A stretch of DNA of 63,989 nucleotides, filler included, from Reticulomyxa filosa (lineage: Eukaryota; Protista; Foraminifera), in assembly GCA_000512085.1 (NCBI GenBank). It is 11 parts of 11 records of this genome, joined end to end, with 100 filler letters (N's around TTAATTAATTAA, not from the genome) between each part and the next. Parts side by side here need not be neighbours in the genome. Positions count along the whole stretch, not along the records: positions 1 to 13,747 come from ASPP01023906.1; positions 13,848 to 23,061 come from ASPP01008192.1; positions 23,162 to 35,235 come from ASPP01006075.1; positions 35,336 to 37,286 come from ASPP01015905.1; positions 37,387 to 42,746 come from ASPP01006561.1; positions 42,847 to 45,136 come from ASPP01025094.1; positions 45,237 to 48,547 come from ASPP01007575.1; 4 more parts are not named here. One strand, 5' to 3'. Position 1 is the stretch's first letter, and the number at the start of each line of letters is the position of its first letter. Positions 28 through 48,484 of this stretch are shown here, one piece after another. Both the position numbers and the translations under genes were made by a program. A model generated the notes under the pieces. That model saw only the letters and a program-made list of their open reading frames with translations, was not told where the DNA came from and ran no database searches.

Positions 28-1228
28 TTTCTCAAAGGATGACGACCTCGAATAAGCAAACTGACATCTGATCCCAATTCTTTGAGTACTTGTGCCAATT
101 CAACAGCAATATATCCAGCACCGACGACAGCAACCCTTTTGGGGAGTCGATCCAACTTGTTAAAAAAATCATCTGAAGTGTAGACGTATTCTTTGCCCTA
201 TAGAAAAATGATACGTAAAGCTTGACTACATACACCTTCTCCTCCCCCTCCCCCTCCCCTTTCGCACTGATAATCACATAAGCTTGATACTCTGTTTAAC
301 TGGTATGTCCGGCCTGTAAGGAAATCCACCAACACCAATCAAGATATTGTCTGCAGTGTATCTCTTTCCATCTTCAGTACTTTGCACGATATTCGGCGCA
401 ACGAATTTCGCATGCGAAAAAACACATGATACCCTTTTACAAGTAATCATAAAAATATCAAAAGTGTAAATTATTTGTTTGTTTCTCCCTTTGCGTATAC
501 GTACACACGTTTCTTTTTTTTTTTGTCCCTCTCTCCTCCCTCCTCCCTCCTCCTTGCTTCAATACTTTGAGTCATTCAAATTTTTTTCATAAATACGATT
601 CAAATATTTCACGTAATTGTCTCTGCGCTCTTTCAACGTTTTCCAATCTAATCTCAGATTGTCAAAGCTAAACCCAAAATTAGGGGCATCATGTCGCAAT
701 GTGGATGCCACGTTTGCGGCTGTCCACATCACCTTTATGTTTTAGTAACATATTGTTTAACTCTTTTTCAATTATTGCGCAATTTTTTTTCCCCTCTTTT
801 TTTTTTTTTTTTGTTCTGATGGATCAGTGTTGTCATTAATCTAACTTTTTTTGGAACACAGCCGACATTGACGCAAGTGCCTCCCAAACGCTTTTTCTCG
901 AATAATATTACCTTTTTTTTTTTTTTTTTTGTTAAGTTCGTCGCACACTTTGACACAAACATTTTTGTCGTCAAAAGTAACTTTGGCACCATGTTGAGCT
1001 GCTCTCCTTGCAGATGCAACACCACCCGATCCTCCCCCGATCACCTTGGCACGTTGTTTTATTTTAGTTGATTACTGTTCAATTTTTGACAAATAAAATC
1101 GCGAAAAACAAACAAACAATTAAATCATATTTTTCTGCAGAAGTCGCGCTGGTCCCGGTGGCGAAAGCTCTTGAAAAATATGGTCCAGAAGGTTGAAGAT
1201 GTCTTAAGAACGTGCGTAATCTGAACAT
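28..1228 (-). CDS. GSR: Glutathione reductase, 5' part (6 exons visible, runs off the window), with a mitochondrial-type presequence
   Basis: Spliced reading [24 protein letters not shown]...[53 protein letters not shown]...[25 protein letters not shown]...[15 protein letters not shown]. It has the FAD GxGxxG, the redox CVNVGC and the NADPH GAGYIA motifs; all introns are GT-AG. Confidence 0.95.
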
Positions 1229-3171
1229 TTTATAGATTATTATTAACAAGTCCGAAAGGATTGATGAATTATGAAAGCTTACCTTTTTTGTTCAAAAATT
1301 TCGACTTTCGGACCAGACTACACTTTCTACACAATTGCATTTTTCATTTATTTTATAGTATGAATCTTATGCACTAATAAATTTGTATTTTTTCATCCTA
1401 ACATATTGATGCATAGACATAATAGAGAATGTGCTCAATCCGGCAACCAACAGAAGATAGTCAAATTAAATTTGCAGCTATTATCTATTAATTTTTAACA
1501 ATTTAGACTAGAAGTATTACACTTATTATTCAAAAGTGATATTACTAGCTCAAAATTTTTTCCAAAATTACGATTGTAAGAGTTTGTACAAAATAATATA
1601 TAATTGACTATTATCATTTTTACAGTACTTACAGCAGTTGTTCGTAAAGGGAACAAATAGTTCTCCATATTTATATCAACTAAAAAAATGTTACAATTCA
1701 TTATTTTCAACAAGAAAGTTAATCAGAGTGCCTAGCGAAAAACATTTTATACTGAAATACTGCTTAAAATCATGTTCTTATTGGGAGACGCTGAGGGATT
1801 AATTGAACAACTTTTTAATTTTTAAACAGTAAAAATAAAAATAAAGATCATAATGAATATTCAGTAAACTAAATATCTTAGGTTTAAGATGTACTATTTG
1901 AGAAATTCAGAAATATTTGGTGTTATGACTGCGGCTTATGTATATGTAATCATATTTTTGAAAATGAATATTTTGATGATAAATTGATTGGATATATCAT
2001 TGCCAATCAAAATCCAAATGTAAATGTGGATCAATTAAATTGGATGGATTAGAAGTGATTACTATTTTTTGAAAGAGGGAGATATCAAAAGAGATCATAC
2101 TGGCAAACGATTCTCGTATTCAACTGCATTCGCTTTACAAGGAACATATACTATTGAATTCCTTCCTTTTGTCAATGTCTACTGCTTTAGCTTTGAACTT
2201 GCTCCAATCACGCTATCATTGTATTAAAACTTGTCCATTGTTGATTCAAAAAAATTTCAACAAGTTTACTCTTTCACTTGTGCAACTCATTTCAATACAA
2301 AAGTTCAAAGGTCAAAAACTGTAGAAAGAAAACCGTTATCAATTTACATATACACATATAATGAATTATTTGTCAAAGTATAAATCCATAAACAAACCAA
2401 TATTTCACGAGATCCATGAAGTGGTGTTTGAATTAAAGACTTTTTACCAAAGAATGTTGAAAAGAAAAAAGGCTTTCATCTTCGAGAAAAGCATTACTAT
2501 TTATGAATAGAGTTTGGAGATTTATTGTAACGAACTGCTTCCTAGATTGGTCAATTTAACTGCTTTTTATTCTATGCTAAAATTATACCCAAATGTGACA
2601 ATGGGCTTTGATCAAAGTATTCTTGAATAATGATTCCATCTTTTTTAAATTCAATACTAATCGATTTGGTTTTAATCTTTGCTTTGCTACTCGTTGACTG
2701 CGTCTAATATCAAGTACAAATAATAGCATTCCTTTTTGTACTTGAATTTCACTTTGATTTTTACAAATTGAATCTATCCCTTTGTTTTTCTTCTTTATTT
2801 GATAATATAATTTATTCAAGTGTATCTTCAGTTATATTTCCTGTGTTTTTTGGTACGGTCCAGGGATCATTTCCGAACACTTCTTCTATTCTCATTTACT
2901 ATTCTAAATTTAAAGTCAAATGGATGCTCTCGTCCAATTCTTTCTTAGGTCCTGGTGACTTTTTTTTGAACTGAAAAAACATGTGGCAGTAAAACTTTTC
3001 AATGAAAAATGATAAAATCTTTCTGGTCAAATTGAAAAATTATATTTCCTTTTATCAAATCTTTCTACTCAAGTTGTGGTTACCACTCTAAAAAACAAAA
3101 CAAAACAAAAATTCTGGCAAATCACCCATAGAAAATCTATAACTTAACCTTGCTGGAACATAACATCATCG

Positions 3172-46873: not shown

Positions 46874-47166
46874 GTTTGTATAATTGATGGAAAATTCAAA
46901 ATAAAAATTCAAATTGTTTGATGAAGGACAATAACAGTTAAAAAGATCATTCAGATTACTGCGTTGTACATAAAATGATAAATTTTATATTAATCCATTA
47001 GCTTCTATCAAGACCTTTTAGATATAAGTATATTCCGTGATAACTAGATTTCTTCTGTTTTATTTACCTCTCAAATAAAAGGAGGGGCCAGGCAAACTTT
47101 TTTGTCAGTATATCTTTGTTTTAAAAAAATTTTTACTCTTACTCCACAACCTGCACGATGGCCAAA

Positions 47167-48484
47167 ATGTCATTTCAAGCAACCAAAACAGAACGACATG
47201 TTTTGCCGCACGTAATATGTGTCGAAGGAAACATTGGGTCAGGTGAGACTTCTTACAGAAAAAGCTGTCCGTAAATACAGTGTATAAGAATCTCGGTGGA
47301 AGCAATTAAGCCTGTTTTTGTGTTTTGATGGTTGCAATAGGGAAGTCAACATTGCTTGATAAGCTATCAAAAGCAGGATATTTTGTAATCCCAGAGCCGG
47401 TCGATCAAATATGGGGTAAATACTTACCAAAATTGTATGAAGATTTGGAGCGATGGTATATATATTATACACACATATGTTGCATCTTTTTACACGTACG
47501 TAAACATTAACTCAGGAACACAATGAGGAAAAAAATAAATAAATTAATATTTTTCCGGACTTTTGCAATCTTCAGAAACAATAGTTATTTAAAAAGTCCG
47601 AAGACGATGTTTTTTTTTTTTTGCTTTCTATCTTTCTTTTCAAACCCTATAATTTGAAGCGATTGAAAAAAAGCTTATATTAATGTATTATTGTATAATC
47701 ATGTACATACATATAAATATAATGTTATGTACAAAATAACTTTTTTTTTTTTTTAAAAAGGGGCTTTTGTTTCCAAATGGAAGTGCTGGATTGGTTCCGG
47801 CAACTGCACTGGAACAACTTGAAAGCAGTGGGAACACCATCGAAGAACCAGAAAAAAAAGGACGAAAAGACGCAAAGAGGGAGAAACAAGGAGGGAGGAG
47901 ACGGGGAGGAGTTGTCAGCAGACAAGGCAAACGAGCACGGAGATATAATTATTGTGGAGAGATCGGCGTTAACCGCGTTTGAGATATTTTCCAAAAACTT
48001 GAAAGAGAATGGGCGAATGAGTGAGTGGGAATTTTCGTTGCTCACCCGATTTTTTCAATTAGTGGATTGGGAGCCCAAATATACTTTGTACTTACAGTTT
48101 TGATTTTTGTTTTTGTTTTGTTTTAAAAAAAAGCCAAAAATCTCTTCAAAAAAAAAAAAAAAAAGATGTGATCCTGGCACTTGCATTGGGAGAATCCACC
48201 AACGCAACCGTGATGGAGAAGATAAGGTCGATGAGGAATTGATCCGATCTTTGCATGAGAGACACGAAAAGTTGTTCGTGAAGCACCAAGAGTCAGGTGA
48301 AAAAATGTCTCCCAGCAAAGACACGTCTGTGTTGCGTTGCATCAGCAACATCAACTCTGAGCCGAAAAAACAGTCTTCCGGCAACTCCCATGTGCTTGTT
48401 GTCAATGGAAATAATGACAAAGATAGGGTCTTTCAAGACACTGTTAAACAATTGGACTATGTCAGAAATCTGCTGGCCCAATAG
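47167..48484 (+). CDS. Deoxynucleoside kinase (dCK/dGK/TK2 family), 4 exons
   Basis: P-loop ICVEGNIGS|GKSTL, then VIPEPVDQIW, LYEDLERW|GFCFQM, IIIVERS, lid CIGRIHQRNRDGE and LHERHE. Confidence 0.93.

Follow-up and report, generated by a model that had tools for sequence, protein, structure and literature searches.

Introduction

Among the bases of spliceosomal splice sites, the G at donor position +5 and the exon-final G (−1) belong to the most conserved, and acceptor position −4 is normally the freest. In humans, an intron without −1G nearly always has +5G, and the reverse holds too; the human sample given in PMC8283771 holds 6 introns among 1,990 that lack both. Many fungi and protists are known to have lost the pyrimidine tract alone (accounts in PMC2483917 and PMC3033335), and Fritillaria borealis, as presented in PMC13326754, illustrates that U2AF changes can retune 3' site choice. 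Here we report on the introns of the freshwater foraminiferan Reticulomyxa filosa in a stretch of 63,989 nucleotides of assembly GCA_000512085.1, which we call the window. As judged from junctions placed by protein homology and reading frame, our analysis confirms that these introns carry non-standard splice signals. The reading of these signals proposed in an earlier note is supported in part: the departure comes from loss of the rules at +3, +5 and −3 and gain of a rule for A at −4, and not from preferred GTT and AAG motifs.

For foraminifera, we found no description of a splice-site consensus in the literature searched; the genome paper (Glockner 2014) lay outside that search, and the result is no proof of novelty. 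Globobulimina introns are said to have canonical splice sites (a statement in Woehle 2018), and Bonamia is said to have canonical introns (a statement in the Ascetosporea paper). R. filosa itself serves as a non-reduced reference in the spliceosome presence table of PMC10245619 (Fig. 2). Table S4 of PMC11347168 assigns it 29,850 major-like and 6,244 major introns, a ratio of 4.8. In the rows from Acanthamoeba to Vulpes that list more than a few introns, a comparable ratio (4.6-7.6) occurs in Entamoeba species alone; the same table gives 0.58 for Bigelowiella, 1.2 for Plasmodiophora, 0.63 for Dictyostelium, 0.74 for Tetrahymena and 0.11 for Plasmodium falciparum. A ratio of 4.8 fits weak signals throughout the R. 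filosa genome, and annotation noise may inflate it.

Results

Splice junctions of R. filosa depart from the standard

An earlier note on the window, with 30 introns tallied by hand (donors 18 GTT, 9 GTA, 2 GTG and 1 GTC; acceptors 14 AAG, 11 TAG and 5 CAG), had claimed a non-standard grammar of GTT donors and A-rich acceptors, usually lacking a polypyrimidine tract. We re-annotated the genes by hand from three-frame translations, listed candidate GT/GC and AG positions, and reproduced this tally on a partly different gene set of 31 introns. Donors read GTT in 18, GTA in 9, GTG in 3 and GTC in 1; acceptors read AAG in 15, TAG in 12 and CAG in 4 (YAG total 16/31), and position −4 was A in 29. 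All 31 introns run from GT to AG, with lengths of 61-306 nt (median 100 nt). Tier A introns alone (defined below) gave GTT 10/15, AAG 7/15 and −4A 14/15, and inclusion of the ambiguous tier C introns (n=36) gave GTT 21, AAG 17 and −4A 32.

All junctions come from the one window and were inferred from protein homology and reading frame. The counted set comprises 15 tier A and 16 tier B introns. Tier A consists of 14 junctions scored against homologous proteins plus Rpn9 intron 2, which was pinned on human PSMD13 and joins residues contiguous with positions 303/304 of that protein. Tier B introns were placed by reading frame, for some with Pfam contiguity across the junction (dNK 128 to 131, AMP-binding 175 to 177, TLDc 52 to 54 and the zinc-finger linker) and for others with family motifs. 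Five introns (tier C: 18833-18910, 22547-22651, 24009-24182, 15248-15432 and 12481-12582) were excluded as ambiguous prior to the count, and the statistics likewise omit three ambiguous donor-only sites. The eleven contig pieces of the window are separated by linkers of 44 N, TTAATTAATTAA and 44 N (13748-13847 and nine more), and genes are cut at the joins. Unused GT and AG dinucleotides within the same introns served as decoys.

Homologs for scoring were gathered for GSR, DGAT2, COPE and RPL12, with R. filosa's own proteins excluded. Every frame-open donor-acceptor pair within 36 nt, of any dinucleotide, was considered (702 to 1,711 candidates per intron), and its joined peptide was scored against the six best homologs. 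The best GY-AG pair was the called junction in 14/14 introns. Among all pairs of any dinucleotide, 8 of the 14 called junctions tied for best, and the other six lay within 4.3 score units. GTT or AAG is carried by 11 of the scored junctions: for five of these the 36-nt range offers no GTR..YAG pair in frame, and for the remaining six such an alternative scored 12 to 72 lower. The tightest call was COPE intron 1, where AAG scored 88.0 and an in-frame CAG 6 nt downstream 80.0 (gap 8.0). The spliced pieces of GSR, RPL12, COPE and DGAT2 contain no internal stop and match their homologs; the final exon of DGAT2 shows 100% identity to R. filosa RFI_08505, and a COPE exon matches ETO29412. A homolog search with Rpn9 returned only the window's own open reading frame, and a search for dNK in phage records gave no match.

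As a method control, a similar homology procedure was applied to 47 RPL12 loci from a metagenome scan (48-68% identity, none near enough to be called foraminiferal), which also served as homologs. It yielded 11 introns in seven loci of other eukaryotes, with GTR, YAG and −1G in 11/11 and +5G in 8/11; the comparison with R. filosa gave p=3e-4 for GTR, p=3e-3 for YAG and p=2e-4 for −1G. We asked whether the introns could be ordinary GTR/YAG ones in A+T-rich DNA whose junctions were misplaced in manual annotation or altered by sequencing errors at homopolymers, and consider this very unlikely. Homopolymer frameshifts do occur in at least four genes of the window, GTT and AAG are used at background rates, and the junctions derive from homology and frame. 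Yet junction scoring was unbiased, the control loci gave the standard outcome, and 11 of the 15 AAG acceptors have at most five A before the G and lie outside long A runs, so that homopolymer error is not their source. Moreover, public annotation agrees on four junctions, both a second foraminiferan and an R. filosa paralog have an AAG acceptor where the corresponding intron lies, and usage at background level at +3 and −3 is non-standard in itself.

Donors retain little of the standard consensus

R. filosa donors do not follow MAG/GTRAGT (the slash marks the exon-intron border), and a faint excess of matches over decoys remains. A purine stands at +3 in 12/31 donors and is no commoner there than in decoy GTs (87/197); GTRAG was found in 2/31. 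The exon ends in G in 11/31, +5G is present in 10/31, and 14/31 have neither (tier A 9/15). Bias-corrected information amounts to ~0.3 bit at −3..−1 and ~0.5 bit at +3..+6. GTT and AAG are indeed the commonest donor and acceptor trinucleotides, but do not hold up as preferred motifs, since both lie near decoy rates (+3T 18/31 vs 81/202, p=0.08; AAG 15/31 vs 61/119, p=0.84). Such background rates point to lost constraint at +3 and −3 in A+T-rich DNA, not to a new preference.

Several weak features do distinguish donors from decoys. A or T at both +3 and +4 occurs in 26/31 (decoys 85/197, p=3e-5), exon ends match CAG at 1.19 of 3 positions (decoys 0.57), a weak excess, and G at +5 or +6 is found in 20/31 (decoys 60/197; local shuffle p<1e-4), split 10 and 10. 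The first fifth of the introns holds 44% T and 26% A, and G+C is 0.41 in the flanking exon and 0.28 in the intron. Avoidance of GT in the last 22 exon bases was not significant (24/651 vs 91/1,643, p=0.07). The U12-type donor RTATCCTTT is absent among the 36 listed introns. The survey of PMC11347168 finds Rhizaria to have no components of the minor spliceosome, and its Table S7 gives R. filosa zeros in four columns, by its text implied to be minor snRNAs (small nuclear RNAs). At 23228 (minus strand), a likely GC donor, AG/GCTTTT, ends the acyl-CoA synthetase piece; its acceptor lies off the contig.

A changed U1 might account for such donors. If, as in Entamoeba, an altered U1 5' end paired with U-rich donors, these would be degenerate forms of GUUUGU(U), and the changes at the 3' end would be separate. 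T leads at +3, +4, +7 and +8, and out of 9 positions real donors agree with CAG/GTTTGTTT at 4.32 (decoys 2.60, p=3e-9) and with CAG/GTAAGTAT at 3.35 (decoys 2.26, p=9e-6), which leaves room for a changed U1. Co-evolution of donors and U1 has a precedent in Entamoeba (described in bioRxiv 10.1101/2022.06.08.495308). However, that preprint gives 88-90% GTTTGT for Entamoeba donors; in R. filosa GTTTGT accounts for just 3/31, and the most frequent hexamer for only 4/31. The preprint also describes most lineages with odd donors as retaining a standard U1. Furthermore, +3T is no higher than T at +7..+20 (204/434, p=0.27) or in a local shuffle (p=0.15), so that the fit to GTTTGTTT may merely mirror the U-rich intron start. 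An Rfam scan of the window gave 0 matches and no snRNA. We regard a changed U1 of the Entamoeba kind as the main rival to the explanation developed in the Discussion, and as an unlikely one.

Acceptors are marked by A at −4 and lie behind an AG-free zone

The earlier observation that position −4 is nearly always A was borne out: −4A is far commoner in real acceptors (29/31) than in unused AGs (51/119, p=1e-7). It carries 1.16 of the 1.45 acceptor bits and is present in all 10 pyrimidine-richer acceptors. G never stands at −3 (0/31 vs decoys 35/119), nor anywhere at −3, −4 and −5 together (0/93), and TAG is enriched over decoys (12/31 vs 11/119). The A-richness claimed for the acceptors applies to −5..−3 and mostly does not reach beyond (A is 42% at −12..−6 and 36% in intron bodies). 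Acceptors that end a pure poly-A run are present as described, at 912-930 (minus strand; 18 A) and 48148-48165 (17 A). At −20..−5, 242 of 496 bases are pyrimidines (0.49), equal to the intron background (0.48), in keeping with the claimed lack of a polypyrimidine tract. Six of the 31 introns reach 75% pyrimidines; six 3' ends are T-rich and seven A-rich. R. filosa introns thus do not show the pyrimidine tract and YAG of U2-type introns. For the inferred junctions, normalization for intron composition brought no return to GTRAG/YnNYAG, and the claim of a non-standard grammar holds.

The last 22 nt before the acceptor contain one AG in 651 positions, compared to 124 in 2,728 elsewhere (p=7e-11; tier A alone 1/315 vs 78/1,387). 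Downstream of the acceptor, an AG lies within the first 12 exon bases in 15/31, a YAG within 15 nt is skipped by 7/15 AAG acceptors, and 12 skipped downstream sites read AAAG, ACAG or ATAG. Selection of the first AG from an upstream branch point predicts this asymmetry, depletion of AG upstream and its tolerance downstream. As a complete rule, "first A[ACT]AG beyond a minimum length" was tried and failed in 10/31 introns.

We also considered that the U-rich 5' part and the A-rich 3' part of an intron might pair and thereby join its ends, as in zebrafish (AC)m-(GT)n introns, which PMC4691745 presents as independent of U2AF2. R. filosa introns fold somewhat better than their shuffles: the mean z is −1.05 (n=28), and that of 60 intergenic windows −0.29 (p=0.014). 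Their end-to-end A/T skew contrast is also larger (0.71 vs 0.29). But true partners performed no better than ones swapped in from other introns (p=0.19-0.33 in three duplex tests, p=0.32 for halves), which gives no sign of complementary tracts that co-occur at both ends of one intron, and A/T homopolymer (runs of at least 5), twice as abundant in introns as in sampled intergenic DNA (0.19 vs 0.09), can account for the z-scores. A:U bridging of the intron ends was rejected on these swap tests, and we give end pairing hardly any credence.

Other foraminiferal sequences and public gene models

Evidence from other foraminifera consists of back-translated read-through proteins with assumed phases and provides hints only; such proteins arise because calls on contigs that lack annotation sometimes continue through an intron. 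GSR sequences of R. filosa and Ammonia fall into one clade with 100/100 support, and a COPE clade that includes R. filosa received a Shimodaira-Hasegawa-like approximate likelihood ratio (SH-aLRT) support of 100 on a quick tree; seven GSR and four COPE clade members were aligned. Where GSR intron 5 lies, P0208 carries 25 extra codons, with V first and N-K-K last; back-translation of this insertion gives a GT donor and an AAG acceptor. The C-terminal read-through of P0208 fits GTTAYGT. P0054 and P0202 are compatible with GTTYGT at the position of COPE intron 3. In P0213 a run of lysines precedes Y-R, which fits poly-A and then TAYAG, and the R. filosa paralog P0207 fits YAAG. These proteins hint that other foraminifera may share the same grammar.

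In the spans of its three proteins, public annotation missed or misplaced 4/8 junctions (GSR introns 1 and 2 and both DGAT2 introns), and the public COPE model begins only after intron 2. Such errors imply that standard splice models likely often yield wrong gene models in foraminifera. Single-base homopolymer frameshifts, likely sequencing errors, interrupt otherwise intact genes at ~39020 (DGAT2), ~19615 (homoserine dehydrogenase-like gene), ~4115 (Rpn9) and ~22130 (TLDc gene). The public DGAT2 model lacks ~17 residues at the ~39020 frameshift, which suggests a false intron; fixes of this kind may have added to the number of introns listed as "non-canonical" in R. filosa (11,851).

Introns and other features of the window

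Five tier A introns interrupt the glutathione reductase gene GSR on the minus strand. Intron 1 (1045..1117, GTTTGT...CCAAG, 73 nt) ranked first, with no in-frame GTR or YAG alternative within 36 nt. Intron 2 (912..981, GTTACT...A18G and thus AAG, 70 nt) was the best GY-AG pair and has no YAG alternative. Public annotation P0206 agrees with introns 3 (733..845, GTTAGA...ATAAAG, 113 nt) and 4 (434..565, GTATTG...TAAAAG, 132 nt), and intron 5 (198..300, GTTAAA...CTATAG, 103 nt) shares its position with other foraminiferal GSRs. RPL12, also on the minus strand, has four: 26212..26303 (GTTAAC...AAATAG), 26015..26137 (GTATGT...AAATAG), 25715..25949 (GTTAAG...AAATAG, 235 nt) and 25302..25607 (GTAATT...GAACAG, 306 nt). 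The remaining tier A introns lie on the plus strand. COPE contributes 26836..26923 (GTTGAG...AAAAAAG), 27252..27363 (GTATTC...CCATAG) and 27760..27830 (GTTTTG...TTATAG), the last in agreement with annotation P0052. DGAT2 contributes 38293..38365 (GTGTCT...ACAAAG), for which annotation P0002 has another acceptor and homologs support the one given here, and 38679..38792 (GTTACG...TAATAG). Rpn9 intron 2 (4427..4513, GTTTTT...TAAAAAG, 87 nt) is in frame without a stop.

The tier B introns on the plus strand include Rpn9 intron 1 (4143..4264, GTTTTT...TAATAG, 122 nt), placed by frame only, with a frameshift just upstream. Two introns, again by frame only, belong to a gene that the earlier note had named Abi (14677..14780, GTTTTG...CAAAAAG, and 15003..15141, GTAAGA...TATATAG). 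Neither Pfam nor the PDB confirmed this name, the PDB search giving chance matches only (E 0.16 or worse). The homoserine dehydrogenase-like gene has an intron at 19073..19172 (GTTTAG...ACAAAAG), placed by frame, and one at 19293..19407 (GTATTA...AAAAAAG), placed by frame and by a family motif, with Pfam PF00742 beginning at the exon start. In the C2H2 zinc-finger gene (32710..32792, GTTTTG...ATACAG), Pfam linker spacing favors the donor over a GTA 3 nt upstream. The deoxynucleoside kinase gene dNK has three introns: 47243..47340 (GTGAGA...CAATAG), set by the P-loop motif; 47456..47760 (GTATAT...TAAAAAG, 305 nt), set by frame, with no YAG alternative; and 48097..48165 (GTTTTG...A17G and thus AAG), across which Pfam PF01712 is contiguous.

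On the minus strand, the TLDc gene has introns at 21222..21304 (GTCTGT...ATAAAG), the sole open pair and the junction covered by Pfam positions 52 to 54, at 20914..21002 (GTGCGT...TTATAG) and at 20707..20773 (GTATGA...TCACAG). The acyl-CoA synthetase gene has one at 23795..23913 (GTTAAT...TAATAG), with PF00501 contiguous across the junction (175/176 to 177), and an in-frame one at 23363..23509 (GTTTGT...CACAAG), where the other in-frame acceptor upstream is also AAG. Rrp42 has introns at 45603..45663 (GTTTGT...ATACAG, 61 nt) and 45363..45434 (GTATTG...CAAAAAG), the latter placed by frame and without a YAG alternative. An intron of an IQUB-like gene (30903..30971, plus strand, GTTTAT...ACATAG) was found after the tally; it is uncounted and follows the same grammar. 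Also uncounted are frame-only introns in genes without homologs at 6169-6272 (minus) and 49260-49321 (plus), which have a GTA donor, an AAG acceptor and −4A for any candidate.

The homoserine dehydrogenase-like gene (18431-20042) has a divergent N-terminal half, and its C-terminal domain alone matches PF00742. At 44565-44873 (minus strand), part of a reverse transcriptase was recognized by Pfam RVT_1 with E 1e-6, short of the curated cut-off; it is probably a decayed non-LTR (long terminal repeat) retroelement. Kelch, PUB and WD40 domains follow one another at 51738-55655 (minus strand), a row that resembles the expanded repeat families of R. filosa.

Discussion

We lean towards the explanation that near-blank GT-AG introns are removed in R. 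filosa by a U2-type spliceosome that largely ceased to read the usual bases beside GT and AG, with acceptor choice by first-AG scanning and a −4A filter. The acceptor would be the first AG past a putative branch point located ~20 or more bases upstream, and the filter (−4A, no G at −3 to −5) would take the place of YAG and pyrimidine tract; AAG would be frequent because −3 is almost free in A-rich DNA. With no pyrimidine tract to bind, U2AF2 might bind weakly or be dispensable, and −3/−4 might be read by U2AF1 or by second-step factors. At the donor only a weak signal would be left, namely A/T at +3 and +4, G at +5 or +6 and a faint MAG at the exon end. Donor choice would probably be aided by the richness in U of the first 25 intron bases and by the fall in G+C where exon meets intron, and a factor of the TIA-1/Nam8 type could set U1 on the weak site. 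G at +5 or +6 would then reflect donor pairing in two registers. The rewiring of U1/U6 or U2AF that the earlier note had suggested is a plausible, putative change.

A number of observations weigh against this explanation. It is built on 31 introns of one window, with junctions known from protein homology and frame. The control introns are less A+T-rich than those of R. filosa (control G+C 0.32-0.59). Real donors fit the Entamoeba-type GTTTGTTT better than GTAAGTAT, and the +5/+6 G pattern is post hoc and amounts to 8/15 vs 33/91 in tier A alone (p=0.26). U2-type introns carry a YTRAY branch-point motif 15-45 nt before the AG; in R. filosa no branch-point motif was enriched at −50..−12 (seven patterns, all p>0.3, n=31). 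Ten of the 31 introns hold an unused A[ACT]AG at least 55 bases from the donor, which implies that the −4A filter alone is insufficient and that something else fixes the start of scanning. Among the back-translated proteins, P0068 fits a standard GTAYGT...TTYAG and P0211 ends in CAG.

More tentatively, we suggest that foraminifera, possibly with their ascetosporean relatives, might use a second splice-site grammar in an intron-rich genome. Its donors would be read in two registers, with U1/U6 consensus pairing all but absent and no compensation between −1G and +5G, and its acceptors, A-[not G]-AG without a pyrimidine tract, would be read by a changed U2AF1 or second-step factor. If true, this grammar would be a natural, lineage-wide experiment in the minimal sequence needed for finding a 5' splice site. 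In core housekeeping genes, neither −1G nor +5G is present in about 45% of the introns counted here, and of all flanking bases the acceptor −4A is the strongest. If RNA confirms these junctions, R. filosa would make it testable what fixes a 5' splice site at minimal snRNA pairing, and which factor reads −3/−4.

How does R. filosa compare with known systems? Like U2-type GT-AG introns, its introns have GT...AG in 31/31, measure 61-306 nt, occur several per gene and carry an AG-free zone before the acceptor, and their positions are shared with other foraminiferal genes. Unlike them, they lack a purine preference at +3, have +5G in a third and neither −1G nor +5G in 14/31, lack the pyrimidine tract, use AAG in half and have −4 almost fixed as A. 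Roca and Krainer reportedly described pairing of human 5' splice sites with U1 in a shifted or bulged register. The two share a G one base downstream of its usual place; that register is said to be rare in humans, whereas in R. filosa +6G is as common as +5G (10 and 10 of 31).

With the GUUUGU(U) donors of Entamoeba, R. filosa shares U at +3 and +4 as the commonest donor start. Entamoeba, as portrayed in bioRxiv 10.1101/2022.06.08.495308, is intron-poor and uses one strict donor (88-90% GUUUGU) with +5G kept, whereas the top hexamer of R. filosa reaches 4/31, GUUUGU does not dominate and +5G is mostly absent. Most fungi, Trichomonas, Giardia and Yarrowia likewise have no pyrimidine tract before the AG, and in the last three a strong branch motif lies close to it at a constant spacing (data given in PMC2483917); R. 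filosa has no detectable motif and an AG-free zone of ~20 nt. Purine-rich 3' ends also mark the non-canonical introns of Fritillaria borealis, which has divergent U2AF paralogs. Fritillaria abandons GT-AG in 95% of introns (figure from PMC13326754), whereas R. filosa keeps the dinucleotides and changes their neighbors only. The "molecular caliper" introns found in the nucleomorph of Bigelowiella natans, as characterized in PMC6009652, are similar in having little beyond GT/AG, no discernible branch motif and an AU-rich body; at 18-21 nt they are definable by length, whereas those of R. filosa span 61-306 nt.

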